A stretch of DNA of 64,000 bases, taken from the IMG/VR virus record IMGVR_UViG_3300046328_000506, positions 1 to 64,000 of that record. One strand, written 5' to 3'. The notes beneath the pieces were generated by a model that saw only the letters and a list, made by a program, of their open reading frames with translations, made no database searches and was not told the origin of the DNA. Source of the DNA: a virus. Positions 27,017-51,748 of this stretch are shown here, in pieces. Both the position numbers and the translations under genes were made by a program. Each line of letters opens with the position of its first letter. The first letter of the stretch is position 1.

Positions 27017-28963
27017 TTAGTCGTATTTTAAAAATGATTGCCCCTTTCCAGACATATCATATTGTTGTGCTTTTTGTAAATTCTTTTTAATCTCTTGTAA
27101 TTCAGTATTATATGTTTGGCGTATTGTTGGGTCTGAAAATGATGGATTATTAATCTCTACTAATACAGGCATAGTTACTGCCCTATCTTTACCTAATGGG
27201 GTAGCTCCAATTAACTCTTCTAATTTATCATCATAAGTTTCATCTCTTTTTAAACCAAAAGCATTTTCTGTTTCTTTATTAATGGTTGTTCCTCCAAATA
27301 ATCCAAAAGCACCGCCTGTACTTACCCCATCTTCTTTTCTATTTGTCTCGCTATTCTTAACTTGTAACAAAGGATTTTTAGCAAACACAGTTTCATCTCC
27401 AACTACCTTAACATCAGCATACACTTTATATTGAATAGTTTGTGGTAAAATTTGTGCTGCTCTTGCGTATTGTGCTCTATTTTCAGCAGGAATATTTTTA
27501 TTCATTGCCATCTTTTTGTAGTTTTCTACTTCAGATAACATTCTTTGATACTCTTCTGGATTTACAGGTATTCTTTTAAGATTGTTTCCTTGTGATACAA
27601 TCCTCATTTTTTCCATATTTAACAATCTGCCTTGCCCATCCTTACCGTTTAATTCTCTACCATTTGCAGCCCTAATAGATACGTTTTGTAAGTCAGATAA
27701 TTTTCTAAATTCAGATTTACCATCAAGTCCTTTCATACGAATAGCATCTTCCATTATCTTATCAAAATCACTACCCATAGGAATACCTGTTTCTAATGCT
27801 CCTATTTTAGCACCCGTATCTTTATCAAACATTGTTGGTACACCTTTCCAATCTAATGCTGCATCGCCAGTAGCTACTAAGTGCATGAAATCTTTTTTCT
27901 TTTCCTCCTCTTCATCCCCAGCACCTCTTGCTTTTGATAATGAAGCATCATAATCTATTGTAGATTTACTACCACTAAATGTAGCATTTTTAGCAGCAGC
28001 AGTTTTAGCTATCATTTGATGTATTCTATCTTGTGCTGCATTATGTAATTCTTCACCTTCTAAATTAGTAGTAGCTAATAATTCTGTATATGCTTGACTT
28101 TGTAGTTGTGCTTTTGCATCATTACCCAATCTAAGATAAACAGACTCCATAGCAGATTTAACTTGACCTAAGTTTGATACATTTTTATTACCAGCACCAT
28201 ATTTCATTAGTTCAGCCTGTCCTTGTGGGGAAGTAAACTCTTTATAAACTTGATTATCAGATTCACTTCCTGTTTCTCCTAACTGTTTAAATGCTGAATC
28301 TACATCTTGTATTACAAGCTCTCTGCCCTTACCAAATTGTAGCCACGTACTTGCTTCCCTATTATTTACATATTGTCCTTCACTATCTCTCCTTGCATAT
28401 AAATCAGAGTAGGACATTGTTTTGTACTTATTTTTATTAGCTGCCAATGTACTTGGAGATACAAACTCATCTTTACCTGTTTCTAAATTTGTAGCTAAAA
28501 ACCCACCTTTATCTGGTATAAATACATACTCATTTAGATTCTTTTTACTTTCAGCAGTCTTTAAACTTTCTTTGGTATATTCATAATCACGTTTACCTTC
28601 ATTTACTTTTTGCATATTTATTTGAGTTTCTGCAAGTAAATGTGAAGGTACGGGTGCATAAGGATTTTTAGAAATATAATCAGCTATTTTAGATTGAGCA
28701 TTTTGTATTCTTTCATATTCAGAATTAACATAGTTACTATGCCCTTCTAATTTAGAAAGAGATTCTTTATCAATAGCAGGAGCAGCAGTCTGAGCAGGTT
28801 GTTGTGCAAACTGATACCACTCGTTTTGAATTAACGGCTGTTGAATATAGTCAGGTGATTGTGTTGGAATATAAACCGTTTCACCCTTTAAATAGCCGCC
28901 TCCTTGCAATTTTGCAACTGCATTATTGGTTGGTAATAATTTAACTTTTTTTAAGGGTTTCAT
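27017..28963 (-). CDS. putative virion cargo/ejection protein (648 aa)
   Basis: Precedes RNAP; Cys-free; N-terminal KLQGGG motif. Confidence 0.7.
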   Translation of the reverse strand: MKPLKKVKLLPTNNAVAKLQGGGYLKGETVYIPTQSPDYIQQPLIQNEWYQFAQQPAQTAAPAIDKESLSKLEGHSNYVNSEYERIQNAQSKIADYISKNPYAPVPSHLLAETQINMQKVNEGKRDYEYTKESLKTAESKKNLNEYVFIPDKGGFLATNLETGKDEFVSPSTLAANKNKYKTMSYSDLYARRDSEGQYVNNREASTWLQFGKGRELVIQDVDSAFKQLGETGSESDNQVYKEFTSPQGQAELMKYGAGNKNVSNLGQVKSAMESVYLRLGNDAKAQLQSQAYTELLATTNLEGEELHNAAQDRIHQMIAKTAAAKNATFSGSKSTIDYDASLSKARGAGDEEEEKKKDFMHLVATGDAALDWKGVPTMFDKDTGAKIGALETGIPMGSDFDKIMEDAIRMKGLDGKSEFRKLSDLQNVSIRAANGRELNGKDGQGRLLNMEKMRIVSQGNNLKRIPVNPEEYQRMLSEVENYKKMAMNKNIPAENRAQYARAAQILPQTIQYKVYADVKVVGDETVFAKNPLLQVKNSETNRKEDGVSTGGAFGLFGGTTINKETENAFGLKRDETYDDKLEELIGATPLGKDRAVTMPVLVEINNPSFSDPTIRQTYNTELQEIKKNLQKAQQYDMSGKGQSFLKYD

Positions 28964-30504
28964 TTTTTCGGTTTTATTTGATTTAACATTTTCACGTACA
29001 TATTATTCTTATCACCTTTAATTTTTGCAAATAGTTTAGAATACTCTAAGTTCTGTTTGCGTAAATCTTTGATTTCAGCCTTTGATTCCTTGATTTCTTC
29101 TTTGTATCTGATTAATTCTTTTTTGTCTTGCAAAGATACAGTTTTTCCTCCAGATTTATATACCTGTTTATTTTTCTTACCAAACAGTTTTTGAAGTCCT
29201 CTTGATACATTATCTCCACCAGAGTTCAATCCACTTTGTTGTCTTGCTTTTACTCCTGCGTTATATTCTTTTGGTAATTGTTTCATCTGAGCATTTAATC
29301 CACCTTTACCATCAGCACCAGATAATTCTTCATTATATTTTTTTAGTGCTGTAGTTTTAGTTTCAAGTTCTATTTTTCTTTTATCGTAATCTTTCTTTTC
29401 TTCTGGGGTTAATTTATCTAAACCTTTACCTTCATAATGTTTAATGTAAGCATTATCTACATTTAATTCTTTTTCTGCTGTATCTCTCTTACTTGTAACA
29501 TCTGCAATACTACTCCTTACATCATTTGTTTTATCACCATACTCATTCTGTGCTGATTGCTCATCAAATTGATTTGCTAATGCTTGTTTCTGGTCTCTCT
29601 CCATTCTATTACCAAGCATTGTACTTTGCACTTCATCTGCTATATTTAACAAGTGTTGTCTACCAGCTACTTTCTTTTGCAAATCAGCTTGTGCATTTTG
29701 AGCCCTCATAGCATTATTAAACTCAGTTTCCATTCTTCTATTTTCATTTTCTTCACCTTTCACACGATTTCTTTCAGCACTTGCGTTTTGGCTTCTTTGT
29801 GCTAAATCTTGCATTTCAATATTAGATTTATTTGCGTTAGCTTGTAATCCTGTAATAGCATTTAGTGTAGCATCAGTGGTTTGATTTTGATTAACTGCTG
29901 AACGTAAATTTGCAGCATTAGCTTGTTGTTTAGCTACTTCTACTGTATAATTACCAGCACTTGCAGGATTGATTAGATTCTGGTGTAGTTTTTGATAAGC
30001 GTCTTCCCCTGTAATAGGTTTATTAAAAATAGCTTTACCTAATCCTAATAACTTATCGGCAGTTAATCCACTACCTCTTACTCTATTATCTGGTGTAGTA
30101 GCTGTTAAACTTTCATTACCACCTACTCTTAATGCTCCTACTTTTTCAGTCCCATCTGCATTTGATACCGCACCAGTTTCTACAACTTCTTCGTCTGAAC
30201 CTTCTTTAAAAGCTCTTGTATCTATTGCACCATCTTCCTCATTTAATACAACTCCTTTTGAATTAACATATTCCCCATTTTCATTTTGAGATACAGCAAC
30301 TCTATCTACTATATCTTCTCCTTGTGTTTGAGTTGATATAGTAGATGGAATTTTCTTAATAAGGGGATTGATTGGGGATGTAGCTAATGCTGGAATAGCT
30401 GATGATTTAGGAAATAATGTACCAAACTTAGATACATTTCTTTCAGCTAATGGTGTGCCAGGAAGTTTACCTGCTTGTTGAAACGTTAAGACTTTTTTTT
30501 TAAA
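28960..30504 (-). CDS. start-less open frame, probable C-terminal extension of the 30486-32552 gene by -1 slippage (fusion about 1197 aa)
   Basis: Frame of the 284-aa ORF stays open for 230 more codons upstream (to 30504) with no ATG/GTG/TTG; begins FKKKVLTFQQAGKLP. Confidence 0.65.
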   Translation of the reverse strand, partial: FKKKVLTFQQAGKLPGTPLAERNVSKFGTLFPKSSAIPALATSPINPLIKKIPSTISTQTQGEDIVDRVAVSQNENGEYVNSKGVVLNEEDGAIDTRAFKEGSDEEVVETGAVSNADGTEKVGALRVGGNESLTATTPDNRVRGSGLTADKLLGLGKAIFNKPITGEDAYQKLHQNLINPASAGNYTVEVAKQQANAANLRSAVNQNQTTDATLNAITGLQANANKSNIEMQDLAQRSQNASAERNRVKGEENENRRMETEFNNAMRAQNAQADLQKKVAGRQHLLNIADEVQSTMLGNRMERDQKQALANQFDEQSAQNEYGDKTNDVRSSIADVTSKRDTAEKELNVDNAYIKHYEGKGLDKLTPEEKKDYDKRKIELETKTTALKKYNEELSGADGKGGLNAQMKQLPKEYNAGVKARQQSGLNSGGDNVSRGLQKLFGKKNKQVYKSGGKTVSLQDKKELIRYKEEIKESKAEIKDLRKQNLEYSKLFAKIKGDKNNMYVKMLNQIKPKK

Positions 30505-32552
30505 TTATTATCAGAGGATTTTAGATTACCCCCGAACTTCAATGATTGTTTCATATCGTTTTGTGTGTTTGAATTACTCATGTTTAACAATGAATCATTT
30601 AGTTTTTCATCTGAGCCATAGTTTCTTTGAGATAGTTTTCTTTTTTGAGCTATTAAAGTTTCAGCATATCTTCTAAGTTCTTTATCTCTTAAATCAGTAT
30701 TATTGGCTACGTTAGAATAAGATTTAGTACCACTAACACCTTGTTTAATTTGTCTACTTTTATCTAACTCTTTCATAATACCATCTAACTCACTATCAAT
30801 TCTTGCTATTTCTTTCTTTAAGTTATTACCCATGCCATCAGAAATACCAACATTACCAGCTCTATTTTTAAATTGGCTTGAATATTGGTTTTGACTTTGC
30901 ATGTTTATACCGCCTTGCTGAAATAATCTACCACCATTTTCTTTTACAGGTAAATACTTTCCTGCTGTGTTTGCTATCTGTTGAGTGCCTTGACCAAGTA
31001 ATTTTGAAGTATTGCCAGCAATAGATTTAGCTCCTTCACCAATCATGCCAACATCTTTATAACTCATGCTGTAAACTTTCTTAATTACATCTTTTCCTAC
31101 TTGAGGAAACATTTTATAAACCTTTTCTAAATTACCACCCGTAGTTTGCAATGCTTCTGATATTTTCACAAGTTTATCTGCTCCTGCTGTTATTGCTGTA
31201 CTTCCTATTTTACCTACAGTGTTTGCTGTGTTAGCTATTGTGCTTAATCCACCAGAAGTTGCTCCTGTACCAAGTTGTAATGTTTTTTGTACTATTGGGG
31301 CTGCTTTTGAAACTACCTCAGATGCCTTACCTGCGACTTGAGCACCTTTAACAAGTGTAGTACCTAAACCAGAAGTAGCTACTCCAGCAGCAAAGTCTTT
31401 TCTTGCACCACTTAAAGTTTTAACTAACTCATTTATATCGCTATCAGACATAGACATAAATTTACTTACACCTTTATTGTAATTAGAACTTCCTGGCATT
31501 TTACTTACGTGAGCTCTTGTGAGAAGTTCTGCGTATAATTTCTTTTTTTCCGGTGTTAGTGTTTGAGATTGTGATTGAGAACTATCACCTCCAACAAGCA
31601 CTGTACTTTTTGTAGATAGTGGGTTAAACGGCTCGCTACCGCCAAGACCTTCTCTAAAAGCGTCTTCTTTTGGATTTCTATTTTCAGTAGAGCCAATGTA
31701 TTTAGCATTAGCATCAATCATTCCTCTATTAAATAATTCACTTTTGATTTTTGTGTCAAGTTCTTTTTGATTAGCTTTTGCTCCACCACCTTTATTCCAT
31801 AAATCACGATAAGCATCTTGTAATTCTGGATAGTTTCTCCAAGAATTAAACATATCACTTCTTTGTTTTCCAGCTAATTTACTTTCTTCACTTTCTTTTT
31901 TACCTGTTCCACCACCATTTGTCTTAGTTCCAGTTTTAACATCAGTAGGTTTTACTTTTTCTTTTGGTAAAGCATCTTCTACATCTCTTTCGTCAGCTTC
32001 AGTAGGGGCATACTCAACTGGTTTTTGTGTAGTAGATTCTGTTTGTTTTTTACCTACATAATCTTTTGTAGTATTAAAATACTTTAGTATAGCATTTGCT
32101 TCATTAAGCCTTTTGCTTTCATTTTTTGTAGGTACTTCATCATCACTTTTACCTTTAAATATTTTTTGTAATAATTCACCAGCACCAGTTCTTGACCGTT
32201 TTACTTCACCTGTTTCAGAATCTATTGGTTGAATTTCTTTTGTTTTTGTGTCAAACCTATACTGTGTAGGATTTTTTTCTAAATGCCGCACAGCAGCTTT
32301 TAATGATTTTATTTCACTTTTTCCTAATTTCCTACCACCAATTTTACCAGAGTTGATAGCTGCGTTCATCATACTCATATTTGAACGAATACCTTCATCA
32401 GCAGATTCTTTTAATCTTTCTTCTGATAATTGTGTAGTGGTATTATACAGTTTCTTATACCCAAGCATTTCCCCTTTGTCTTGCTTTTCTTTCTTTTCCG
32501 ATTTTCCACCTTCTTGAAATTTACGTACAGTAGATATTAATTCTAATTTCAT
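30486..32552 (-). CDS. putative virion cargo protein (688 aa, 0-frame product)
   Basis: KFQEGG, LFQQGG, LKFGG motifs; Gly/Ala/Thr-rich amphipathic region; Cys-free. Confidence 0.75.
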   Translation of the reverse strand: MKLELISTVRKFQEGGKSEKKEKQDKGEMLGYKKLYNTTTQLSEERLKESADEGIRSNMSMMNAAINSGKIGGRKLGKSEIKSLKAAVRHLEKNPTQYRFDTKTKEIQPIDSETGEVKRSRTGAGELLQKIFKGKSDDEVPTKNESKRLNEANAILKYFNTTKDYVGKKQTESTTQKPVEYAPTEADERDVEDALPKEKVKPTDVKTGTKTNGGGTGKKESEESKLAGKQRSDMFNSWRNYPELQDAYRDLWNKGGGAKANQKELDTKIKSELFNRGMIDANAKYIGSTENRNPKEDAFREGLGGSEPFNPLSTKSTVLVGGDSSQSQSQTLTPEKKKLYAELLTRAHVSKMPGSSNYNKGVSKFMSMSDSDINELVKTLSGARKDFAAGVATSGLGTTLVKGAQVAGKASEVVSKAAPIVQKTLQLGTGATSGGLSTIANTANTVGKIGSTAITAGADKLVKISEALQTTGGNLEKVYKMFPQVGKDVIKKVYSMSYKDVGMIGEGAKSIAGNTSKLLGQGTQQIANTAGKYLPVKENGGRLFQQGGINMQSQNQYSSQFKNRAGNVGISDGMGNNLKKEIARIDSELDGIMKELDKSRQIKQGVSGTKSYSNVANNTDLRDKELRRYAETLIAQKRKLSQRNYGSDEKLNDSLLNMSNSNTQNDMKQSLKFGGNLKSSDNNLKKKS
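30492..30504 (-). promoter_or_regulatory. slippery site T TTA AAA AAA AAG (A9 tract)
   Basis: Contains the dnaX-type heptamer A AAA AAG one sense codon (TCT) before the 0-frame TAA; -1 frame is open downstream. Confidence 0.6.
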
Positions 32553-32580
32553 TTCTTTCTAATTTATATTGTTTACAAAT

Positions 32581-32859
32581 TTAAACATTTGTATTGGAAG
32601 ATTGTATAAGTATATCTTCTTCTAATTTAGTATAGCTAATTCCCAATGCCCTTAAATGCTCTGGAAATTCACTCAGGAACAACATCTCTATCTGAGATGT
32701 ATTATCTCTGTCATCATCCGTAAGTATGTCTAATAGCCTCTTAATGATAAATAGCACTATGTCTATAATAGGCTTTGCTGCACTTGTGTTTGACAAGGAT
32801 TTAGCTAACAAATCTATAAGAGTATTAAGTCCAAGTTTAATAAAATATTTGAATAACAT
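32581..32859 (-). CDS. small amphipathic protein, possible lysis accessory/holin
   Basis: Directly downstream of amidase; amphipathic helices PIIDIVLFIIKRLLDIL; function inferred only from context. Confidence 0.5.
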   Translation of the reverse strand: MLFKYFIKLGLNTLIDLLAKSLSNTSAAKPIIDIVLFIIKRLLDILTDDDRDNTSQIEMLFLSEFPEHLRALGISYTKLEEDILIQSSNTNV

Positions 32860-32860
32860 A

Positions 32861-33352
32861 TTAATATTTGTTATGTTTTAAAATTGTAAAATTATCTTTA
32901 TCATAAATATTTTTTTTAGGGACACCAAGTTCTTGTAAGTATTTTGGAACTGAAAAACAAGGGCATGCTTTTGCTGCAATTTGGTTATGACCTAAGATAA
33001 TAATCTCTGGATATTCTTTCAAATACCATTCAATTATTTCTTTCATTTTTTCTTTTTGTATGTCTGTACGATTATCAATAGGTTGTCCTTTTGCAGTTAT
33101 TCCGCCAATATACGATATGTTTATTGAATTACTATTTGATATATCAATGGTTTCATTTTTATATGCTTGAACTCCATTTGAAGGTTTGGTATTATCTATG
33201 TAACGTTTTACAACTCCATCTGGTTGTATAGTAACATGATAACCCTCTCTTTTCCACTTTAAAGAATTAAGGAAGAAGTGTTGTAGTTTCTGCCAATTCC
33301 AAGTTTGAGGACTGGCTGTTGTGTGTATTACTAAATATTTTATTGTTCTCAT
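32861..33352 (-). CDS. N-acetylmuramoyl-L-alanine amidase endolysin (T7-lysozyme/Amidase_2 type)
   Basis: LVIHTTA, GYH, SINISYIGG, ILGHNQ, KACPCF Zn-ligand motifs. Confidence 0.9.
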   Translation of the reverse strand: MRTIKYLVIHTTASPQTWNWQKLQHFFLNSLKWKREGYHVTIQPDGVVKRYIDNTKPSNGVQAYKNETIDISNSNSINISYIGGITAKGQPIDNRTDIQKEKMKEIIEWYLKEYPEIIILGHNQIAAKACPCFSVPKYLQELGVPKKNIYDKDNFTILKHNKY

Positions 33353-33367
33353 GTGTGTTGTTTTGTC

Positions 33368-33733
33368 TTAACGTGTTAGTTTTACAAATATACCACCAAA
33401 TAATCTAACTGCTCTATAGTAGATTTTAGCGTACTTAAAGTTGTTTTCTTGCATCATTTTTAAAAACAAATCATCTATTTCTTTTCTTGTAAAAGGCATA
33501 CCATTTTCTAAGAATTGGTATAAAGCATCATGTACTAAAGAAGGATAATAAGTTTCTTTAAAATCTGGTGATAACGTAGTCCCATCCCAAGCATATCCAG
33601 CTTTTACAACCACATCTCCCCTTTTATCAATAATTACCCAAATCTTACCAAGTAAATCTCTACCTGTAAAAGATTTATTCTTTATCTCAGTAGAGTATGT
33701 AAAGTCTTTCTCTAATGTAAATTTATATTTCAT
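33368..33733 (-). CDS. DUF1353-like protein
   Basis: GYAWDG...SLVHDALY...RKEIDDLF...YRAVRLFG signature. Confidence 0.8.
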   Translation of the reverse strand: MKYKFTLEKDFTYSTEIKNKSFTGRDLLGKIWVIIDKRGDVVVKAGYAWDGTTLSPDFKETYYPSLVHDALYQFLENGMPFTRKEIDDLFLKMMQENNFKYAKIYYRAVRLFGGIFVKLTR

Positions 33734-33960
33734 AAGTAGTTATATAAGATTTTAGTGAGCATTTCGTTTATTGGTAAGTTTTTGTAAGTATCAAAATCCT
33801 TTCCAATTAAAAATATAGGAATACCTGATACTGTAGTGGAATTACCCTTGTATGTTACAATAATATCATAGACTATATTAATGTATGTTTCTGTTAAATC
33901 ATAATTAATAATATCTACATTTCTTTCTATTCCATGATTAGATGGTATTTTTATTATCAT
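33730..33960 (-). CDS. hypothetical protein (76 aa)
   Basis: ORF track; ATGA overlap with DUF1353 gene. Confidence 0.6.
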   Translation of the reverse strand: MIIKIPSNHGIERNVDIINYDLTETYINIVYDIIVTYKGNSTTVSGIPIFLIGKDFDTYKNLPINEMLTKILYNYL

Positions 33961-33966
33961 GTTAGT

Positions 33967-34003: not shown

Positions 34004-34017
34004 AGTTTTTTAAGTTA

Positions 34018-42117: not shown

Positions 42118-42645
42118 ATGGAAAAAATAAAACTACAAAAAAAGCCCAAAAAAGCGTTTGACAAAAAGAAAACTCCTTTTGAAAAACCTAAGTTTGAAGA
42201 ATCTGATTTAGGTACAAATATATTTATAAGCTACCTACAAATCCCTGTATCACATTTTCCAGCAAAAAATGAGTACGTTAAAGATGATGAAGGAATACTT
42301 GTCAATAAAGAAGTTGATGTTGAATATACACCCTATACAAAAGTCTATCAAAAATCAAATCTAAGATTAATAATAGCGGGTTTAACTGATAAATCTAAAA
42401 GTTTGTATTTGTGGATTACGTATGAACTGGATTCTAATAAAGATTATTTGTGGATTAATGTGCCAAGATATATGGAAGAAAACAAGCTATCTTCTCTAAC
42501 TACATACTACAATGCTATAAAAGAATTACAGCGTTGGAATATAATGGTAAACACTACAGTAAAAGGTGTATATTGGATTAATCCTGAATATTTCTTTCGT
42601 GGTAATAGAATTGAAAAATATCCAAACAACTTAGTAAAAAGATAA
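42118..42645 (+). CDS. RepL-like winged-helix replication/DNA-binding protein
   Basis: LTDKSKSLYLWI...SLTTYYNAIKEL...KGVYWINPEYFFRG matches the RepL-type C-terminal signature. Confidence 0.75.
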   Translation: MEKIKLQKKPKKAFDKKKTPFEKPKFEESDLGTNIFISYLQIPVSHFPAKNEYVKDDEGILVNKEVDVEYTPYTKVYQKSNLRLIIAGLTDKSKSLYLWITYELDSNKDYLWINVPRYMEENKLSSLTTYYNAIKELQRWNIMVNTTVKGVYWINPEYFFRGNRIEKYPNNLVKR

Positions 42646-42663
42646 TAAATTAAAAAAATAATT

Positions 42664-43512
42664 ATGGAAAACAAAAATTTATTTAAAGTAAATTTAGCGA
42701 TTGCTTTTAGGTGGGCATTGAAGTATGATAAAAGATTATTTATGAATTTATTAGACATGTTTAAAGAATTTAATTTTAATGAACATGGTTTATTAGATAA
42801 TTATATAATTGATGAAAGTGTTAATATTATAGAAGTATTAACTACTGCAATTAATGAATGTGGAGATTATGAGAGTATATTATCTTTTACTTGGCTGTTT
42901 GACAGGAGAGTTGAATATTATGATTATACAAACTATAAGTACACATTAGCAGAAGAGCACCCTTATAAAGAATTAATTCCTATCATAAAAGAAAAAAGAA
43001 ATTGGCTTGAAAAGAATGGAATAAGTAATTGGAGAAAATCTTTAAACCATGAAAAACACCAACACTTTAGATTTTGGATAAATAAAATATTAACTGCAAA
43101 TACAGATAAAGATAATAACTTATATAATAAAATATTACACTTATCATTGTTGCCAAATAACGATACAAGAGTATTTAGTCATTTATATTTATGTGATAAT
43201 CACAATAATAAGACAGATAGCTTTAATCAAATTTTAAAATATATTTTAGATAACAATATTATTCCAGATATACACAAGAAACAAGTAGAATTTATTGACC
43301 CAATAAATCCAGATAGACATAATCCAAGAATGGTTAAAACCTCTGGTGCTATTTTTGGTTTTTCTTATTTGGTATCTTTAACAGGTAATGAGCTAAAAGA
43401 TATTTATAAAACAAAAATAAAAAAACATCATTTAGGCTATTTGGAAAAACAAAGCTGGGCTTATGTAAATGCTGGGGATGATAATAGTTTGTATTATATT
43501 TATATAAAATAG
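42664..43512 (+). CDS. hypothetical protein (282 aa)
   Basis: ORF track; no recognisable motif. Confidence 0.7.
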   Translation: MENKNLFKVNLAIAFRWALKYDKRLFMNLLDMFKEFNFNEHGLLDNYIIDESVNIIEVLTTAINECGDYESILSFTWLFDRRVEYYDYTNYKYTLAEEHPYKELIPIIKEKRNWLEKNGISNWRKSLNHEKHQHFRFWINKILTANTDKDNNLYNKILHLSLLPNNDTRVFSHLYLCDNHNNKTDSFNQILKYILDNNIIPDIHKKQVEFIDPINPDRHNPRMVKTSGAIFGFSYLVSLTGNELKDIYKTKIKKHHLGYLEKQSWAYVNAGDDNSLYYIYIK

Positions 43513-43567
43513 TTGGAACTAATAGATAAAACGAATAGTTATAGTAGTATAAACAACATTTAAAAAT

Positions 43568-43984
43568 ATGAAGAAAATAATTTTAATAGTAGGATTAGTA
43601 TTAGTGAGTTTAGTGGGATATAGTCAGGCAGATTGGGTAGCAGCAGATAGTTTATCAGAAGTGGTTGTGAACGGAAATGAATACGAAGAAGTGAAATCTC
43701 AATTAACTACTATTTATAAAGGAAAGATTTTTAAACCTACTACAGATTTAACAAATACACCAAAAGATGTTAGAGATTGGTTTCTTAGCGGTGAGGAATT
43801 AAAAAGAAAAGATACATGGATTTTTATGATACCATTTAATAAAAAACATATAGCATTAAATGATATAACAAATAGGTATAAATATTCTACAATAAAAGAT
43901 GTTGGTGATAAAAAATACTTTACTTTTTTTATTGAAAAGACAGAAGATGGAAGATATAAATACACAACTTTGTTTTTTAATTAA
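43568..43984 (+). CDS. secreted/periplasmic hypothetical protein with Sec signal peptide
   Basis: MKKIILIVGLVLVSLVGYS|Q signal peptide. Confidence 0.8.
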   Translation: MKKIILIVGLVLVSLVGYSQADWVAADSLSEVVVNGNEYEEVKSQLTTIYKGKIFKPTTDLTNTPKDVRDWFLSGEELKRKDTWIFMIPFNKKHIALNDITNRYKYSTIKDVGDKKYFTFFIEKTEDGRYKYTTLFFN

Positions 43985-44031: not shown

Positions 44032-45084
44032 TTACAAATCTTTTATTTTTTCAAACATTTCTTTTGACAACGGATATGTTCCTGTATGACTTTGCATATT
44101 AGCTAATGCACGTTTAAATCTACCAGAAGGGTCTGCCGCAGCAATTTCATTTATTTGACTTGCATGAGATGTGGTATCCCAATTTTTTATTACTTCTGAT
44201 TTACTATTATCACGCAAATTTATACGAGATACAGTAACTCTACCTAAATTTTGTCCAGCGTTATTTGTTACAGATAAAGTCATTTCGTATTTATAATCAT
44301 TTGGATTTCCACCACCACCATCACCTCCAGTTTTTATCGGAGTAGGAGTATTAAAATCCATTTTAGATGCTGCTAAATACTCTAAATTTTCATCTAACCC
44401 AAGCTGCTTATTTATACCTCTTTTATAAGTAGTTGCATTAGATTTCAATGCTTGATTTCTATTGTAAGCATCTGATAACAGTTGAGCTTGCTCTTTTGTA
44501 ATTTGATTTGATTGAAACATTTGAGCAATTCTTTCATCATCAGGATTACCAAATTTAGCAGCTAAATCTCCTTGTGATGCTCTCATCTTATCTTGGTACG
44601 CTACATTACCTGAATTTTTACCATAAGCAGTATTGCTTGTATCAGTATATTTCTCAGTATATAAAGTACGTTTAGCACCGTCTTCTGGCTTAATATCTCT
44701 TGGTTTTGTTGTAGCACTATACCCAGAAGCCATAGTTTTATTTACAGTATTTACTATAGGCTTTTTACCCATTCTACCTGCATTTTGAAACTTAGGAATA
44801 CCACCACCCATTTTAAATTTAGGGATTATAATTCCCCCAAACTTTTGAGAAGGTATCATTTCAACAGACTCTTGCTCACCTTGTGGAGATGTAACACCTA
44901 ACATTTCTGCAACCATACCTATAATCTCATTACCCAATTCTTCATTAGGTTCTTGCATATAGGCTTGTATCATTGCAACTAATTGTGTTTCAGGATTTTC
45001 TTGTTCTTCCTGTGGCATTTGTTCTTGGGGAGCTTCCATCATTTCTCCCCCTTCTTGATAAATTCTTAGATAATTTTTTTTCAT
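44032..45084 (-). CDS. putative internal virion protein with GG motifs (350 aa)
   Basis: IYQEGG, QKFGG, KFKMGG, KFQNAG; acidic Met/Gln-rich first module. Confidence 0.75.
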   Translation of the reverse strand: MKKNYLRIYQEGGEMMEAPQEQMPQEEQENPETQLVAMIQAYMQEPNEELGNEIIGMVAEMLGVTSPQGEQESVEMIPSQKFGGIIIPKFKMGGGIPKFQNAGRMGKKPIVNTVNKTMASGYSATTKPRDIKPEDGAKRTLYTEKYTDTSNTAYGKNSGNVAYQDKMRASQGDLAAKFGNPDDERIAQMFQSNQITKEQAQLLSDAYNRNQALKSNATTYKRGINKQLGLDENLEYLAASKMDFNTPTPIKTGGDGGGGNPNDYKYEMTLSVTNNAGQNLGRVTVSRINLRDNSKSEVIKNWDTTSHASQINEIAAADPSGRFKRALANMQSHTGTYPLSKEMFEKIKDL

Positions 45085-45096
45085 ATAAGTTTTATA

Positions 45097-45489
45097 TTAT
45101 TTTGATTTTTTCTCTTTGTTTAAATACCCATTCTTCATAACCTCTTGATATGCTTTATTTGCAAGAGTTGCTTTCCCACCCTTTTCCATTTTTTTACTTT
45201 TCATAAACTTTGGTTTAGGTTTAGACATACTACCACCACGTTTAAATTGTGGTAAACCACTTTCATTTTGCATAGGTTCTTCTTGCGGTAACATCATTTC
45301 AGCAAGCATCCCAATTAGTTGTTGTTGTGCTTCAAAAGAAGGTTGTATTAGATATTCCTCAACCATAGCTTTTATATCTGCACCTTCTGCTTGTGTTTCC
45401 TCTTGTGGCATTTCCTCCATTTGAGGTGAAGGCATACTATCTACACCCTCTTGAAATTTTCTTAGTTTTAATTTATTATTATTACTCAT
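45097..45489 (-). CDS. putative internal virion protein with GG motifs (130 aa)
   Basis: ATG at 45489 (MSNNNKLKLRKFQEG); track TTG start lies inside the -7 box; QFKRGG, KMEKGG. Confidence 0.75.
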   Translation of the reverse strand: MSNNNKLKLRKFQEGVDSMPSPQMEEMPQEETQAEGADIKAMVEEYLIQPSFEAQQQLIGMLAEMMLPQEEPMQNESGLPQFKRGGSMSKPKPKFMKSKKMEKGGKATLANKAYQEVMKNGYLNKEKKSK

Positions 45490-45507
45490 GTTAAATGTTT
45501 TTGTTTG

Positions 45508-45515
45508 CAAAGTTA
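45508..45515 (-). promoter_or_regulatory. possible -7 promoter box TAACTTTG
   Basis: TAnnTTTG 18 nt upstream of ATG 45489; no correctly spaced -33 box. Confidence 0.4.
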
Positions 45516-45633
45516 GTTATTAAAATAGACAAATGTTATTGACTGTGTATTGTTCATGTAATTTAGCGTAAATTTATTTATGTATTTAGCTAATGTAGTT
45601 TTGTAGGTATCTAATGCTATAAAATCAGAAAGA

Positions 45634-47013
45634 TTATTCTTCAACATATTGTGGGTTTTGTTTATTGTGAATATCTATTATTTTGATTAATTCTTTTCCA
45701 ATTTTTTCTAAGTCTTTTGGTGTTTTAGCTAATAGTGTTTTATCAATTAATTTCTTAGTATGTTTTCTTGAAAATATCCTTTCTCCACCTTGCAATTCTG
45801 TTTGCACTTCTCCATTTTCATCTAATAGATACATGCCACCTTTTTTTAGTTTAGATAAGATATTGCCTCCTAATTCATGTTTATTCCATTTAGAAGCGTT
45901 TTGTGCAAATACAGCTCTTTTTTTCGTAAGGGGATTTTTAGAATGTGTAAGTTCTTCTGTACTTTTACCTGTACGTTTTTTAGTTTCAGTAAATTTACCT
46001 TTGTTTTTCGGGTCTATATTTATCCCACCTTTTTCTAATTTAATACTTTTAAGGAATGTATTTTTATTATAATCTATATTTTGTTTTTCAAAATCATTAA
46101 TTACATCTTTTGATATAGATAATCTATTACTTTTATCTTTAACTTTTCGTAGTAAATCAGCTATACCATCAATCATATCTTTTGATTTAATAGGAAGTGC
46201 TGTATATAAATTCTCCCCTAATTGAGCTAAACCTTTTGTATTACTTATTTTCCTTAAATAACCTTGAACTGATTTGTTTTTATTTTCAACTAATTTACCA
46301 CTACTCGTAGAGTACCCATCTAATGTGTGGTCTCTTACAGTATTAGTTTTAGATAATACAAATTCCATTGTTGTATCACCTTGATTTAATTTGTTATTTA
46401 TAACCCCACCATCTTCAAATTTACAGCCATCTTCACATTTCCATTTTTTTCTTGCTAATCTTAATCTTGAATTAGGGTTCTTTGCTGCTTTTGGAAACAT
46501 TTTCATTTGTCCTGCACTTCTGGCACAATAAGATTTCTTTCTACTTCCCCCTTCTGGTTGTGGTGGTTTTAAATTACTTCCAGGATTTTCTCTGTTATAA
46601 GAATCTCTGCCTTTCTGATTCAGCCCACCCGTCTTCGATTGTCCTTCAGTCCTTGTCCAAGCCCCTCCTTGTTTGTATTTTATAATATCGCCAGTTTTAA
46701 TCTTAGCATAGATTGGTAATTCTAATACAGCATCAGTATTGTATGTTGTTAGCTTCTCACTATTTGGGTCATTGCGTTTAACTACATTAGTAACTACACC
46801 TTTTTTTATAAAAGCTAATTTTAATGGAAATCCTACTCCAGCCATTGTAATTGATTTCTCTTTACCCTGCTCTGGAAATTTTAATAGCATATTTGAAGGT
46901 TCAGATTTACCTCTCTGCCCTTGTTTTAATTCTTCGTTAGTTTCTGCTAATTCTACATTTAAAGGTGCATTATTAACAGTAATTGTTTTATTTTTGAATC
47001 TTAGTTTTTCCAT
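45634..47013 (-). CDS. modular protein: DUF192-like domain + small basic phage domains separated by GG motifs (459 aa)
   Basis: LNVELAET...G...MLLKF...M...FPL.LAF...VLELP (DUF192-like); AWTRTEGQ...GGLN.KGR...SYCARS...WKC (DUF6321-like). Confidence 0.75.
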   Translation of the reverse strand: MEKLRFKNKTITVNNAPLNVELAETNEELKQGQRGKSEPSNMLLKFPEQGKEKSITMAGVGFPLKLAFIKKGVVTNVVKRNDPNSEKLTTYNTDAVLELPIYAKIKTGDIIKYKQGGAWTRTEGQSKTGGLNQKGRDSYNRENPGSNLKPPQPEGGSRKKSYCARSAGQMKMFPKAAKNPNSRLRLARKKWKCEDGCKFEDGGVINNKLNQGDTTMEFVLSKTNTVRDHTLDGYSTSSGKLVENKNKSVQGYLRKISNTKGLAQLGENLYTALPIKSKDMIDGIADLLRKVKDKSNRLSISKDVINDFEKQNIDYNKNTFLKSIKLEKGGINIDPKNKGKFTETKKRTGKSTEELTHSKNPLTKKRAVFAQNASKWNKHELGGNILSKLKKGGMYLLDENGEVQTELQGGERIFSRKHTKKLIDKTLLAKTPKDLEKIGKELIKIIDIHNKQNPQYVEE

Positions 47014-48442
47014 TTCTAATGCTTTTAAATTCTTTTGTATTATTATGTGTGTTAGCCATAAGCTGCTGCTTAAAAAAGTTTCCTATATCTTGAAGCGAAG
47101 CTGAACCGTTTTTATGTTTTTGTACTAATCTATCTAATTGTGTAGAATTATCTTTTGTTAATATTAATTCATTTGATTCTATTTCAGCAGTTTTCTCACA
47201 ATTACCATCTGTACTACAATAGACCACAGGAATACCTTTACCTCCAAACCCTAATTCTTGTGGGATATTATTTCTATTTTTATGTAGTACACCTTTTGGG
47301 ATTATGTTGATGCCACCTGTTTGAAACTTAAAAGGACTCACTCCTACTTTATCTATTATAGGTTCTCTACTTGCTATTTTAGATTTAGCACGAGGAACAC
47401 TCATATCAATTTTTGGTTCTCTTTCTGGTTTAACTGCATATTTATCAGCTAATCTTTCTGTGAGAGGCTTGCCCTCTCTAATTCTTGGTACATTGCTATC
47501 CATTTTTTCATCAATCATATAAGGTTGATTTGGGTACTTATAATCTTGATAACCAACAGGTTCACTTACTCTATCTGTATTAGTTGAAGTTTGGTTTCTT
47601 TCTTCTTGTGTGAGTAGTGGTTTATATTGGTGTGTATTATCTATTCTTTGTAATTCTCTATTTAATTCATTAAACTTTATTGCATATTCATCAGCAGTTA
47701 ATTCTCCTGCACTATCATACAATTCTTTAAGTTTATTTTTTAAGAATGTTGTAGGATTATTTTCTCCCCCTTGCTGGAATTTTAATTTACGGAATTTTAA
47801 TTCCCCCCCTGTGTTATAATCATTAAAACTTTTACCCACAGCTGTATTTGCTGTACCTAATTGTCCAAACTTTTTAAGTCCTTGCTTTACAACATTTGAA
47901 GCAAACTTTCCTGCTCCTGGAATTGGGATTAAACTTGCCCCCAATCCAGCACCATAACTTGCAGCATCTGTATAATTTCCTTTTGCTACATTTTCTAATA
48001 AGCCATAAGCATTAGCTACGGTTGATGTTCCTGGTAATGTTTCTAAACCAGCTCGTACAACATTTTTAGCTATTTGTCTATTTTCAGTTCTATCAATATT
48101 TTCTTCCCTTTGATTTAAACTTTGTTGTGCATTTCTTTCTTCAATAGATGGGAAATTCAACTTCTCTTTTAGAGTTGGGGCTAATGGTTTAAATTGTTTC
48201 TGTTGTACCCCAGTAGAATCTCTTTGTACGCTTTCATATTTGCTTTGTAAGGCATTATCTTTTCCCAGACGTATATTTGTACCACCTGACTGTAATAATG
48301 GTTTATAAGGCAATTGTGAGCCTGATTTGTAAAAAGGAAATTTTATTTTCAAATTTATAGGGTAGGGTGTAGACTGAAAATCATCGTGTTTTTTAACACC
48401 ACGCTTTTTCATCTTATTAAATTTTATTTTATCAGTTTCCAT
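46988..48442 (-). CDS. modular putative cargo protein with GG motifs (484 aa)
   Basis: LLQSGG, KFQQGG, KFQTGG; C-terminal NIIPKGVLH...KGIPVV...AEIE domain. Confidence 0.75.
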   Translation of the reverse strand: METDKIKFNKMKKRGVKKHDDFQSTPYPINLKIKFPFYKSGSQLPYKPLLQSGGTNIRLGKDNALQSKYESVQRDSTGVQQKQFKPLAPTLKEKLNFPSIEERNAQQSLNQREENIDRTENRQIAKNVVRAGLETLPGTSTVANAYGLLENVAKGNYTDAASYGAGLGASLIPIPGAGKFASNVVKQGLKKFGQLGTANTAVGKSFNDYNTGGELKFRKLKFQQGGENNPTTFLKNKLKELYDSAGELTADEYAIKFNELNRELQRIDNTHQYKPLLTQEERNQTSTNTDRVSEPVGYQDYKYPNQPYMIDEKMDSNVPRIREGKPLTERLADKYAVKPEREPKIDMSVPRAKSKIASREPIIDKVGVSPFKFQTGGINIIPKGVLHKNRNNIPQELGFGGKGIPVVYCSTDGNCEKTAEIESNELILTKDNSTQLDRLVQKHKNGSASLQDIGNFFKQQLMANTHNNTKEFKSIRNGKTKIQK

Positions 48443-49230
48443 TACGAAAATATGTTATTGTTATCTTTGTAGATTGCCATTATTTCAGATAGTTTTTCTT
48501 TTATATATTTTACTGTAGTATGTTCTTCTATTGTTTTAGTGCAATCTTTATCTATTGCTACAAGCAAACTTCCAAGTAGTGCAAAGTTCTTACCATCTCT
48601 TTCTATATTAATTACATTATTTGGTAGATTATCGTTATCTATATGCTCTATTAAAATAGGATAAGATATAAGTATTTCTAATTCATGTTGTTCTAATATT
48701 CCAGCAACTAACAATGGTAGGTTCTTTGATGTTTTATTATAAAATAAACACTCTAGCTTTTCGTATTTAGCAAGTTCCTCATAATGAGAAGATAAAGGCA
48801 TTGCTTGATAGTTGTATATTGTAGAATGTTTTATACTAATAGCTTCTTGAAATCTAAAAGAAAAATTTTTAAAACCTTTTGCTACTCCATTGTGATATAT
48901 TGCAATGCTAACGGTTTGAGCATCTAAGTTTTCTCTAAGTTCTTTTAGTATATGATTTATCTTAATTCCATCAAGTAATACATTCCTATTTAGTTTGTAT
49001 TCTAACATTTTATCTTTTAACACCTCTTCTCTCTGTGCTTGTTTTCTAAGTTCTATTACAGCTAATTCAGTTTCAACAGTTTCTATTTGCTGGTCTTGTG
49101 CTTGTTTAAATTTTAACTTAGTAGCGTAATAATCATATAACAATTTAGCACCCTCACGTAAAAGATAAATAAGTCCCCCAAAAACTGTTATTAATAAAAT
49201 GTTGTATTGTTCTATAACTGTCTGTAACAT
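48442..49230 (-). CDS. membrane-anchored protein with C-terminal GAF-like domain, putative holin
   Basis: Single N-terminal TM (ILLITVFGGLIYLL), coiled coil, then LRENLDAQTVSIAIYHNG...LGSLLV alpha/beta domain. Confidence 0.55.
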   Translation of the reverse strand: MLQTVIEQYNILLITVFGGLIYLLREGAKLLYDYYATKLKFKQAQDQQIETVETELAVIELRKQAQREEVLKDKMLEYKLNRNVLLDGIKINHILKELRENLDAQTVSIAIYHNGVAKGFKNFSFRFQEAISIKHSTIYNYQAMPLSSHYEELAKYEKLECLFYNKTSKNLPLLVAGILEQHELEILISYPILIEHIDNDNLPNNVINIERDGKNFALLGSLLVAIDKDCTKTIEEHTTVKYIKEKLSEIMAIYKDNNNIFS

Positions 49231-49234
49231 GATT

Positions 49235-51748
49235 TTATCTTTTAAATTTTAGTGGAACTCCTCCCTGTTTCATTGTTGGAATACTACCCTGTTTATTTTG
49301 TTGTAAATATTGATTATATGCTTGCTGTAACTGTTGTTGCATAGTAGTATCAGTAGCTTGTATTTGTGTAATTTTACCTTCTTGTATCATTTGATTAACA
49401 AACTCTTGATAACTTAATTGCTTATTTGGAACTTGTTGCACGTTAGCTTGCTGACCTCCAATTAAATTAGGTAACATTCCTGTAATTGCACCTGTTATAT
49501 TACCTGCTCCTGTGGGACTTGTACCACTTCCAAACATACTTCCGACACCCTGCATTACAGCAGCATTACTTAATAATGAAGTCAATCCTCCTAATTGATG
49601 TTTGTTTTTATTCTTTAAGTATACATTGCTCCAAAGACCTCTTTTAGTTTCTTTCCCATTTTTTGTAATATATGTGTTCTTATCTTTTAAATAACCACCT
49701 TTTTTATAACCTGTAACACTTATCATTGGTTTAAATTTTGTATCAGGTTTCCTTGTGTTTGTAGTACCACGTATTACTTTTTTAGTTCTACCTGTATCAT
49801 CACTTAGTTCATCAACAATGTTATAACCTGTATTTGCTTTTTTATTTATATTAAAGTTTTCATACAAAGTTCTTTTTTGTGTGGGCTCAAAAGGTTTATA
49901 ATCACTAAATGTATAGTGCGAAATACCAGATATAGATGTTGGGTGTCCTATTGTTTCAGCACCAAGTCTGTCAAAACTAATGCCGTTATCATTAGCCATA
50001 TTTGCTTGTTGTTCTCCTAATTTATTAGCTTCTTTAATTTTCCCAGCTTTAAATAGTTTTGATGCTTGATAACCAAGTTCTTTTATTTTTTCTAATATAT
50101 CTGGATTTGTACCACCAGTTTGCAATCTCTTAGCTCTTATAGTAAATGGTTTCAACATTGTAGGTTTCTCAGCAATTCTTTCTTTTGTTTTTGGGTCATA
50201 GTAAATCCTATCGTATAATTGCATTGGAGTACCTAATCCCACATCTGATTTTTTATTTTTTTCAAAAACATTTGGTGCTAAATCCCACTTATCATAAAAG
50301 CTAACGTAATCACCCTTTTCATCTTTGCCAACATTTGCTGTGTAATTTCCCATAACAGAAGCATCTATATCTTGTAAATTCTTTTTCCCAAAAGGGAGAA
50401 GTGGTAAATTATTTTTTAATGCTTTAATGCGTTCTCTTTCTTCTGGCAGTTGTGCTTCATCACTTAATGATACTGCCATTTCATCATCAATACTTAATCC
50501 TTTTGTATCTGTATGAGCTTTTCTATAAGTTTCAAAAAGTTTAGTTTTTATGTCATCATCTTTAAAAGTATAGTATGTATCATTCTTATTATCTCCTTTT
50601 GACGGACTTGTTTTAGATTTAACTATAGTGCCGTTGTCTTGATAACTTTCGTCTCCACCTAAATACATTTTAAAAGCATCCATTCTTCTTTTATCTCCAG
50701 CATCAGGTTCACCCATATTGCGATTGTTTTCCGTAACTTTTTTAAAAATAGAATTTGCTTTATCTAAAAAATTTGAATTATTTTCTACTTTTACATCTTC
50801 ACCATAACCAAATGGATGAATGTTTTCACTTACCCATTTACTTACGCCAGACAGTTCTTTTTTTTGTATAGGTACATTAGCTGATGGATTTTGTTTTTTC
50901 CATTTTTCCGCCATTACTTTTTCAGTATTATTTTTAGGATTTTTTACAAATGCAGGAACATTACCCCCCTGCTGAAACTTCTCTATAACTATTATTTGTT
51001 TTTCAGCATTAGGTATTTGTGTAATAAAATCTCTTAATGACTTACCTGAGCTTTTAGCTGATTGTTTTATCTTTTCTTTTGTTGAGTTATCATACTTCTT
51101 ACCTTTACCAACACCACTCATTTCATGTATTCCATCTATAATCTGTTGCGGTAAGTCAAATAGTATATCTGTATCTATTCCATCAGTGTCTTTATTACAA
51201 CTACAATCAGTTACTCCTCCTTTTTGGAATTTAAGTTTCCCACCTTTACGAAATGACCTCATACCAAACGCAGGACTATTAAAACTATTTTGTTGTTGCA
51301 TAAGTCCTTGATTAATACCGCTTTGATTAGCCTTATTTATTTGAGCTTCTTTTTGCTTTTGTAATTGCTTTTTAATTTCTTCTAATTTTTCATCATTAGA
51401 ATTGTCTTTAACTCCAAATATTTTTCCAAGTGGTGTAGCTGCAATAGCTCCTGTTACATTTCCTTTTGATAAGTTAGATAACATATTTACACTCGAACCA
51501 ATTGGGTCTAATGTGCTTTTTAGTACACCACCAGCAATAGAACTATTATCTTGGCAAACTTCTTTCCCTGTAACTGGGTCTATTTCACAATCTTCTTTCC
51601 CAAACTTCTTAGATAAAGCTGCTGCTGTGTTCATTACTTGCCCTGCACCAGGAACAAAAGCATCTGCCACACCAGATACAGTTTGTCTTGCCATATCTGC
51701 TGTAGCATTTGGCACTTTTGCACCACTATAAAATTTTAACTTTTTCAT
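49235..51748 (-). CDS. modular cargo protein with 8 GG-type motifs (837 aa)
   Basis: Follows muzzle gene; Gly-rich amphipathic N- and C-terminal segments; KFQKGG, KFQQGG, RLQTGG, GYKKGG, KHQLGG, TMKQGG. Confidence 0.75.
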   Translation of the reverse strand: MKKLKFYSGAKVPNATADMARQTVSGVADAFVPGAGQVMNTAAALSKKFGKEDCEIDPVTGKEVCQDNSSIAGGVLKSTLDPIGSSVNMLSNLSKGNVTGAIAATPLGKIFGVKDNSNDEKLEEIKKQLQKQKEAQINKANQSGINQGLMQQQNSFNSPAFGMRSFRKGGKLKFQKGGVTDCSCNKDTDGIDTDILFDLPQQIIDGIHEMSGVGKGKKYDNSTKEKIKQSAKSSGKSLRDFITQIPNAEKQIIVIEKFQQGGNVPAFVKNPKNNTEKVMAEKWKKQNPSANVPIQKKELSGVSKWVSENIHPFGYGEDVKVENNSNFLDKANSIFKKVTENNRNMGEPDAGDKRRMDAFKMYLGGDESYQDNGTIVKSKTSPSKGDNKNDTYYTFKDDDIKTKLFETYRKAHTDTKGLSIDDEMAVSLSDEAQLPEERERIKALKNNLPLLPFGKKNLQDIDASVMGNYTANVGKDEKGDYVSFYDKWDLAPNVFEKNKKSDVGLGTPMQLYDRIYYDPKTKERIAEKPTMLKPFTIRAKRLQTGGTNPDILEKIKELGYQASKLFKAGKIKEANKLGEQQANMANDNGISFDRLGAETIGHPTSISGISHYTFSDYKPFEPTQKRTLYENFNINKKANTGYNIVDELSDDTGRTKKVIRGTTNTRKPDTKFKPMISVTGYKKGGYLKDKNTYITKNGKETKRGLWSNVYLKNKNKHQLGGLTSLLSNAAVMQGVGSMFGSGTSPTGAGNITGAITGMLPNLIGGQQANVQQVPNKQLSYQEFVNQMIQEGKITQIQATDTTMQQQLQQAYNQYLQQNKQGSIPTMKQGGVPLKFKR

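Follow-up and report, generated by a model that had tools for sequence, protein, structure and literature searches.

How are the cargo proteins of a crassvirus recognised, and are they made as polyproteins that are cut afterwards? The question was raised by a cluster of eight open reading frames (ORFs) at positions 27,017 to 51,748 of a 64,000-nucleotide stretch of viral DNA (hereafter the window; positions 1-64,000 of record IMGVR_UViG_3300046328_000506, of which the full 130,171 bases are estimated to be 76% complete). A preliminary description had noted about 30 copies of a short motif in these ORFs, a basic and a hydrophobic residue followed by two variable residues and Gly-Gly, and had proposed a double-glycine system for processing or packaging polyproteins. 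We found the motif strongly enriched in the eight ORFs, placed at their leaders and module boundaries and kept in distant relatives, and these sequence comparisons indicate that it is a true signal, conserved at the leaders and junctions of crassvirus cargo proteins. As to its function, we lean on balance towards a linear tag for cargo loading, with clipping after GG at some copies only.

Enrichment and form of the motif

All 32 hexapeptides listed in the preliminary description were found in the ORFs named for them. Eight are in the ORF of 837 amino acids (aa), five each in the 484-aa and 459-aa ORFs, three in the 130-aa ORF, four each in the 350-aa and 688-aa ORFs, two in a 514-aa open frame and one in the 648-aa ORF. 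For comparison with background, the eight cargo ORFs (3,880 aa, with the frame at position 28960 taken in its 284-aa ATG form) were set against the remaining ORFs of the 130-kb record that reach 60 aa or more (148 ORFs, 34,894 aa). The strict form of the motif, [KRQ][FLYHMIW][QKE]xGG, occurred 16 times in the cargo ORFs and twice elsewhere (Fisher 1e-14), while the core form, [FLYHMIW][QKE]xGG, occurred 24 and 7 times, respectively. A loose form in which G[AVS] or AG is also allowed gave 31 and 29 matches, and plain GG gave 54 and 107, a 4.5-fold enrichment. When each cargo protein was shuffled 2,000 times, the averages were 0.35 ± 0.59 strict copies (maximum 4) and 1.5 ± 1.2 core copies (maximum 6), so the enrichment over background is confirmed by both comparisons. 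The two strict matches outside the cargo ORFs are KIEPGG in the portal protein and KYKNGG in a 178-aa ORF; the giant ORFs of 5724 and 1721 aa have none. About one third of the 32 listed copies (e.g., DYNTGG, VKENGG, SQKFGG, FYKSGS and the G[AV] and AG forms) match the loose pattern alone, and since this pattern is not rare outside the cargo ORFs, these copies are regarded as weak.

The conserved positions lie upstream of GG, with K at -6, F, L, Y, H or M at -5 and Q, K or E at -4, frequently preceded by [IL]P at -8/-7, and conservation downstream of GG is much weaker. Copies also occur in tandem within the cargo ORFs, spaced by 7-10 aa. Chance, biased composition or a nucleotide-level signal, such as an internal Shine-Dalgarno-like GGAGG or a recombination hotspot, might be suspected behind such a motif, K and G being frequent in the cargo ORFs and plain GG itself enriched in them. 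The shuffles, which keep composition, argue against this origin. The Gly-Gly of the 24 core copies is written with 12 different codon pairs, and only seven copies have GGAGGN, which indicates selection at the protein level and not on a GGAGG-like nucleotide word. With the motif also conserved in homologues at 24-45% identity, we consider this explanation refuted and its probability negligible.

Position at leaders, seams and natural termini

Basic leaders of 10-23 residues close in the motif in five ORFs, and in three the last copy is followed by a short tail of 7-25 aa. The internal arrangement can be seen in the 459-aa ORF, where DUF192 (aa 19-100), KYKQGG (aa 112-117), DUF6321 (aa 125-191), KFEDGG (aa 198-203), an uncharacterised module, KLEKGG, a module here called module A ('I.I.PKNKGKF…KRA.FAQNA.KW'), KHELGG, KLKKGG and a C-terminal module follow one another. 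Two copies thus bracket DUF6321, and several unrelated domains are joined in one polypeptide that is presumably packaged. Module A is a small basic protein labelled 'transcriptional regulator' in other crassviruses.

Homology blocks were defined by BLASTP of the cargo ORFs against 1,433 proteins from relatives. Eight of the 25 block boundaries lay within 6 aa of a core copy, compared to 2.7 ± 1.5 expected (P = 0.003, 5,000 randomisations). In the 837-aa ORF, the blocks shared with the related proteins P0002, P0003 and P0004 (aa 1-171, 179-264, 255-542, 681-751 and 715-837) begin or end at copies, and the C-terminal end of P0002 coincides with RLQTGG. These results bear out the placement given in the preliminary description, namely after basic leaders, before short tails and at boundaries between unrelated modules. 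Natural termini of related genes were found at the same points. At one locus (L018) a stand-alone 105-aa ORF begins exactly one residue after KFQTGG of the 484-aa ORF, and the module A genes of five others (L030, L032, L033, L052 and L057) begin at the residue following the GG position. Other module A genes carry a leader ending YPIPSYK[DY]GG, and embedded copies of module A are followed by KH-x-x-GG.

The modules themselves recur in other combinations. Besides itself, the 837-aa ORF has only three relatives in the database, which hold its blocks rearranged and within different proteins. Its 'YLKDKNTY…GLWxNVYL' block has different neighbours in P0003 and lies within a LysM protein in P0004. 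Module A is found here in the 459-aa ORF and elsewhere in P0003, a 1415-aa protein resembling cargo protein 1 (C1, gp45) of the crassvirus ΦcrAss001, flanked in each case by Φ-K/Q-x-GG (Φ, hydrophobic residue). At locus L035 the DUF192 module is fused directly to the C-terminal module of our 459-aa ORF, the three middle modules being missing, and at both L018 and L035 several modules are encoded as separate small genes. Judged from these alignments, the cargo ORFs are mosaics of small, for the most part basic modules of the internal-protein type, shuffled among relatives, with their seams at the motif.

Conservation across Crassvirales

An exhaustive HMMER search with the 648-aa ORF recovered 13 representatives of its family, 12 of them full-length at 24-65% identity to the query. 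In 11 of these 12, a leader of variable length ends in K/x-Φ-Q/x-x-GG within the first 19 residues, and this retention is the strongest single result of the analysis. The twelfth homologue has KFQAGG at aa 123-128, adjoining the start of homology. All three core copies are kept in P0013, a homologue of the 688-aa ORF at 38% identity. In ΦcrAss001 gp45, a basic leader ending in IFDTGG (…NIFDTGG) is accompanied by some nine other Φ-x-x-GG copies. Residues 365-440 of gp45 align at 42% identity with module A of the 459-aa ORF, with no full-length similarity between the two proteins, and this module matches C1-like ORFs of many loci with E values of 1e-16 to 1e-23.

Module A was used to collect 80 loci with 1,393 distinct ORFs. 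Nine of these ORFs have at least three copies of the basic form, against a background of 0.24 per 1,000 aa, and all nine are C1-like with module A; their GG contexts have F, Y or H at -5 and K at -6. Leaders ending in Φ-x-x-GG were found in 35 of the 1,393 ORFs, including C1-like ORFs, stand-alone module A genes, the ORFs that follow in the cargo cluster and also unrelated ORFs. The C1-like proteins have 10-29 copies per chain, with about 29 Φ-x-x-GG in 1,160 aa at locus L040, and an extended form, [IL]P-x-Φ-K-x-GG (e.g., YPIPSYKDGG), is present in dozens of small crassvirus proteins. Since the leader is kept in the 648-aa family, in many crassvirus cargo genes and in gp45, we take it to be a real conserved leader and junction signal.

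Genomic setting of the cargo ORFs

From its capsid, ring and muzzle genes, the window is assigned to a crassvirus; the portal gene lies just beyond the window edge in the same record. In ΦcrAss001 the muzzle gene (gp44) is followed by the cargo genes gp45 and gp46 and then by the polymerase-associated giants (PMC10172136). Gene order of this type is recognised here from the placement of the capsid, ring, muzzle, portal and DFDED giant genes. The 837-aa ORF begins 19 nucleotides past the muzzle gene, which is a C1-like placement, and the giant ORFs lie at 4596-26997. All eight ORFs stand at the cargo positions of this gene order. It is interrupted by a block of fibre and lysis genes (33-41.5 kb) and by three genes on the plus strand. 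Since the fibre genes and the 688-aa cargo ORF are separated by the genes for an Amidase_2 lysin and a DUF1353 protein, lysis genes lie within a split cargo block. The synteny with ΦcrAss001 gp44-gp50 and the modules shared with gp45 support the assignment of the eight ORFs as a cargo and ejection set, as had been supposed from the window alone.

Comparison with known systems

ΦcrAss001 C1 resembles the present ORFs in its genome position, module A, a similar H..GG…E.E domain and its own IFDTGG leader. Unlike C1, the set described here is spread over eight ORFs with additional DUF192, DUF6321 and GLWxN modules, and its motif is sharper (K-Φ-Q/K/E-x-GG). In the passages of PMC10172136 considered here, gp45 is treated as a single intact chain and the motif is not mentioned, and a term search of that paper returned no words for proteolysis, cleavage or protease. 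Literature searches for the motif returned no paper describing it.

Cleavage at double glycines is known from other systems. Adenain and pS273R of African swine fever virus, both of clan CE, cut virion proteins or polyproteins at G-G, the adenain consensus being (M/I/L)-x-G-G. The analogy to these enzymes drawn in the preliminary description is not supported. All 16 strict copies have the hydrophobic residue at P5 and a basic residue at P6, whereas adenain reads P4; these proteases belong to eukaryotic viruses; and PF00770 and PF02902 (C5, C48) gave no match at E ≤ 1 in the 130-kb record, which covers an estimated 76% of the genome. Double-glycine leaders are also cut by the C39 domains of bacteriocin exporters, with hydrophobic positions at -4/-7/-12. 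They share with our motif the short N-terminal leader ending in GG, and the hosts, probably Bacteroidota, have such systems. Their register differs from the -5 found here, they serve export, and PF03412 (C39) has no match in the 130-kb record. We know of no internal copies in leader systems of the C39 type.

The capsid targeting sequence of phage T4, MKTYQEFIAE (PMC8442874), loads internal proteins and is then removed by gp21, with targeting and clipping separable (PMC9026906). Like the leaders described here, it is a short N-terminal sequence with an aromatic residue and Q/E on unrelated basic proteins that are packaged and injected (PMC9026906; PMC8442874). In contrast to our leaders, which end in GG and have internal counterparts, its protease (S77) cuts after Glu at [LI]-x-E, and PF03420 (S77) has no match in the 130-kb record. 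DUF6321 connects the two lineages. The 459-aa ORF matches 565 phage records, mainly via this domain, which is widespread in T4-like cyanophages, where its homologues are annotated as structural protein, T4-GC119. The DUF6321 protein of cyanophage P-SSM7 begins with MKTYSQFIEE, identical to the T4 targeting sequence at 8 of 10 positions. In this cyanophage DUF6321 thus appears to be delivered with the targeting leader of its own lineage, which supports the view that the crassvirus leader may be a functional counterpart, and the likeness to a capsid-targeting tag drawn in the preliminary description is apt to that extent. The small modules common to P-SSM7 and our cargo ORFs suggest a pool of internal-protein modules across unrelated phage lineages. 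A literature search on DUF6321 returned no paper. The P-SSM7 gene itself (GU071103.1, 1404-1922, locus L006, T4-GC119) encodes the targeting leader, a basic module 'GLWDNIHAKRKRG' and then DUF6321.

The polyvalent proteins of Iyer et al. (2017, PMC5512222) are packaged and injected chains that likewise join unrelated small domains, with an HExxH domain beside the virion polymerase, as in N4. Compared to these, the HExxH regions of our record match no Pfam family, and the tagged ORFs themselves are without a peptidase domain. The terms 'glycine' and 'crAss' each have 0 occurrences in that paper, and the passages of it considered here contain no junction or cleavage motif.

Proposed function and candidate proteases

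We propose that the motif closes a short N-terminal leader in stand-alone cargo genes and would be retained at every seam once modules fuse. It would act as a recognition element read chiefly from its N-terminal side, and the tagged protein or module would be loaded into the cargo zone of the procapsid, as by the 10-residue targeting sequence of T4. Clipping after GG may occur at leaders and at some seams, and the HExxH domains of the co-packaged giants are the only protease candidates seen. What is said here of targeting, of clipping and of the factor that reads the tag is inferred, the targeting role from position and by analogy.

The preliminary description had pointed to zincins as the possible protease. 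HExxH motifs do exist in the record, only in the 1721-aa and 5724-aa ORFs, and a family match for them was not obtained (Pfam, E ≤ 0.01). Apart from the Amidase_2 lysin, no peptidase family was identified when 43 proteins or protein segments of the record were scanned with Pfam. In cr55_1-like crassviruses, a zincin 'peptidase' (HELGH) is encoded between the portal and scaffold-like genes, directly upstream of a stand-alone module A gene. The site between portal and scaffold-like genes is the classical place of a head protease. This arrangement recurs in many crassviruses of the human gut: at locus L002 (MT774376.1, cr55_1, 5983-7406) and loci L041-L090 the peptidase gene (HELGH and variants) lies directly upstream of a 63-85-aa module A gene with a leader ending YPIPSYK[DY]GG, and the peptidase has a motif near its own N-terminus, IP-x-Y-[EQ]-[DE]-G-[GK] at aa 35-44 (IP-x-Y-E-D-GG in the cr55_1-like phages). 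Of the 57 loci where module A stands alone, 22 have an HExxH ORF within 3.5 kb of it. No counterpart of the cr55_1 peptidase was found in the 130-kb record. The 1721-aa ORF has a weak local likeness to it around HExxH (E = 1.5), and the 402-aa ORF beside the portal gene was considered for this role and rejected for want of any similarity.

Several observations weigh against reading the motif as a signal for targeting and clipping. The Pfam families C5, C48, C39, Prok-JAB, S78, S77 and ClpP are all absent from the 130-kb record (76% complete), and the giant fused polymerase ORF, which the literature would expect to be the cleavage substrate, has 13 GG and no copy of the motif. The structural model of ΦcrAss001 gp45 is continuous over residues 425-552, through AFGG/W, TQGG/D and NEGG/S (the stroke marks the point after GG) (PMC10172136). 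The first two correspond in the alignment to our KHELGG and KLKKGG, and these three copies may be structural parts of a portal-bound domain and not signals. The ΦcrAss001 motif is also looser, being Φ-x-x-GG with no basic residue. Some stand-alone module A genes are leaderless or have a leader without GG (EGKSS, AKSG), so the tag is not obligatory for module A. The larger cyanophage DUF6321 homologues S-E7 and RB11-B lack the targeting leader, and the P-SSM7 parallel is therefore only illustrative.

Alternative explanations

Three other functions have to be weighed against a loading tag with partial clipping. Every copy might be cut after GG by a virion maturation protease, which would remove the leaders and free about 30 small proteins and peptides in the capsid or after injection. 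Leaders, seams, tandem sites and natural termini at P1' all fit this explanation, and GG at P2-P1 with specificity weighted upstream is the classic layout of a protease site. Zincin-like metallopeptidases have been proposed to process the multidomain proteins that phages inject (PMC5512222), and giant crassvirus polyproteins have been proposed to be cut (bioRxiv 10.1101/2020.03.07.982082). It would also explain, with no need of threading, why gp45 residues 214-245 are seen in the tail and residues 425-552 on the portal or in the capsid, about 420 Å apart (PMC10172136), and the gp45 copies at aa 263, 332 and 373 fall between these two pieces. Against it stand the ΦcrAss001 model, uncut through three copies, the seven protease families absent from the record, the HExxH ORFs that match no peptidase family and the polymerase fusion with no copy. 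Cutting at all of the roughly 29 copies of the L040 protein would shred it into peptides of 10-40 aa, and ΦcrAss001 virions gave gel bands of 85 and 100 kDa (PMC6235969), near the 91 kDa of gp45, to which one of them may correspond. We regard processing at every copy as doubtful and less likely than partial clipping.

Alternatively, the motif may be an uncleaved hinge, in which GG and a small hydrophobic anchor let bead-like modules unfold and thread through the tail, the internal copies being unread scars of once-separate genes. The same modules occur in both split and fused form, disorder is predicted for the motif region in a weak structural model (described below), the ΦcrAss001 copies are uncut in the solved domain, and cargo proteins are thought to traverse the tail partly unfolded (PMC10172136). 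Such a hinge leaves unexplained why 11 of 12 distant homologues, whose leaders vary in length, keep K-Φ-Q-x-GG at the very N-terminus, why the [IL]P-x-Φ-K-x-GG extension is conserved and why copies stand in tandem, and it appears improbable. More improbable still is a cohesive sticker, with basic-aromatic-GG repeats in otherwise hydrophilic chains condensing the cargo proteins with each other or with DNA into the cargo zone, and no cleavage. The many copies per C1-like chain, the basic nature of the chains, with an isoelectric point (pI) of 9.0-9.8 in six of the eight ORFs, and a distinct DNA-excluding cargo zone in ΦcrAss001 capsids (PMC10172136) would suit it, whereas the single N-terminal copy conserved in the 648-aa family fits a signal better than multivalent cohesion, and a sticker has no need of seam positions. 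A loading tag, clipped after GG at some copies only, hence remains the explanation we favour. That the motif is a hitherto undescribed double-glycine capsid-targeting and processing signal throughout Crassvirales, made of a basic leader and aromatic-x-x-GG, and that C1 is a polyprotein cut at its seams into small injected proteins, is a wider claim that we think unlikely.

Features of the cluster and neighbouring genes

Features of the cargo cluster, the giant ORFs and neighbouring genes in record IMGVR_UViG_3300046328_000506
Feature	Position	Strand	Observations
1721-aa ORF	4596..9761	-	HExxH at aa 446, second candidate zincin; no motif copies; no Pfam match
5724-aa giant ORF, fused virion RNA-polymerase type	9823..26997	-	DFDED at aa 3833; HExxH at aa 3056; AAA_30 / SF1 helicase-like P-loop at about aa 1450-1570
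648-aa ORF	27017..28963	-	Directly upstream of giant polymerase ORF; leader MKPLKKVKLLPTNNAVAKLQGG(G) is its only copy
514-aa open frame	28960..30504	-	No start codon in first 230 aa; holds TFQQAG and VYKSGG
688-aa cargo ORF	30486..32552	-	Leader MKLELISTVRKFQEGG; copies end at aa 541, 548, 675
Amidase_2 lysin	32861..33352	-	Between fibre genes and 688-aa ORF
DUF1353 protein	33368..33733	-	Between fibre genes and 688-aa ORF
Three plus-strand ORFs	42118..43984	+	Break the minus-strand late region; first has RepL-like match (E = 5.5e-7)
350-aa cargo ORF	44032..45084	-	Leader MKKNYLRIYQEGG; three tandem copies end at aa 84, 94, 103
130-aa cargo ORF	45097..45489	-	Leader MSNNNKLKLRKFQEGV; copies end at aa 86, 105
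459-aa cargo ORF	45634..47013	-	Pfam DUF192 (3.3e-7), DUF6321 (3e-16)
484-aa cargo ORF	46988..48442	-	Copies end at aa 42, 54, 213, 226, 377
262-aa ORF in cargo cluster	48442..49230	-	No motif; N-terminal hydrophobic segment
837-aa cargo ORF	49235..51748	-	ΦcrAss001 C1 position; leader MKKLKFYSGA; further copies end at aa 170, 178, 262, 546, 685, 721, 830
Muzzle protein gene, 1468 aa	51768..56174	-	Pfam crAss_MUZ (E = 1.7e-57); 0 strict motif copies; start of cargo block
Ring protein 2	58270..59034		Pfam scan
Crassvirus major capsid protein	62036..63484		Pfam scan
129-aa ORF	67472..67861		Beyond window; nearly all about eight 'x-x-(I/V)-D-F-T-T' repeats; no Pfam match
402-aa ORF	68701..69909		Beyond window; cysteine-rich; adjoins portal gene; no Pfam match

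The 837-aa ORF had no Pfam or PHROG match, and a single-protein scan of viral contigs found no close relatives of this ORF or of the muzzle protein. PHROGs gave no family for eight of the ten proteins scanned in and beside the cargo cluster; the other matches were of the 459-aa ORF, via DUF6321, to families of unknown function, and of the muzzle protein to a 'virion structural protein' family. The 262-aa ORF is unlikely to be a tagged cargo protein; its neighbours in the ESM Atlas are viral clusters that in part bear a GAF domain label, which is a lead only.

The last module of the 484-aa ORF (aa 378-484), putatively portal-binding, resembles the H..GG…E.E..E domain of C1-like proteins. An AlphaFold2 model of it from a 7-row alignment had a mean predicted local distance difference test score (pLDDT) of only 50, with 25-28 in the motif region, and its fold is therefore not confirmed. 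A phmmer search of the 484-aa ORF against PDB sequences gave chance matches only and did not recover 7qog_M. The 130-aa ORF is paralogous to the N-terminal portion of the 350-aa ORF, and its counterpart at locus L035 has 98 aa and begins MKVKFLQEGG. Identity of the 648-aa ORF with ΦcrAss001 gp46 (C2) was considered and dropped; since neither BLASTP nor hhalign gave a significant match to gp46, the ORF is not called C2.

The 514-aa frame is shifted by -1 relative to the 688-aa ORF and overlaps its end at nine consecutive A, where the 688-aa ORF closes with tta aaa aaa aag tct taa. At this site (30486-30504), -1 slippage, either programmed or transcriptional, is a candidate and would yield a fusion of about 1,200 aa; the other candidate is a homopolymer assembly error. 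The homologue P0013 likewise ends in a lysine run, and no significant RNA structure was found downstream of the site (z = -0.8). In the 5724-aa ORF, DFDED conforms to DFDxD, the signature of crAss-like virion RNA polymerases (bioRxiv 10.1101/2020.03.07.982082). DFDED, HExxH and the helicase P-loop together suggest that at least three virion proteins are fused in this one frame.

Significance

Crassviruses are reported to rank first in abundance among viruses of the human gut (PMC10172136), and the tag bears on the loading and ejection of the several megadaltons of protein that they carry. A shared cargo tag would provide a handle for predicting which uncharacterised genes encode packaged or injected proteins, possibly including anti-defence effectors. 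If it works like the T4 targeting sequence, it may offer a route to load foreign proteins into crassvirus particles. The tag also offers a testable alternative to a single gp45 chain spanning the portal, and ΦcrAss001 is suited to the test, being cultured, bearing the motif in gp45 and having liquid chromatography-tandem mass spectrometry data from virions. If the polyprotein reading were true, the tail-bound and portal-bound pieces of gp45 would be separate polypeptides and not one threaded chain, and the conserved zincin beside the portal or polymerase would be the first head maturation enzyme of the metalloprotease type in a tailed phage.

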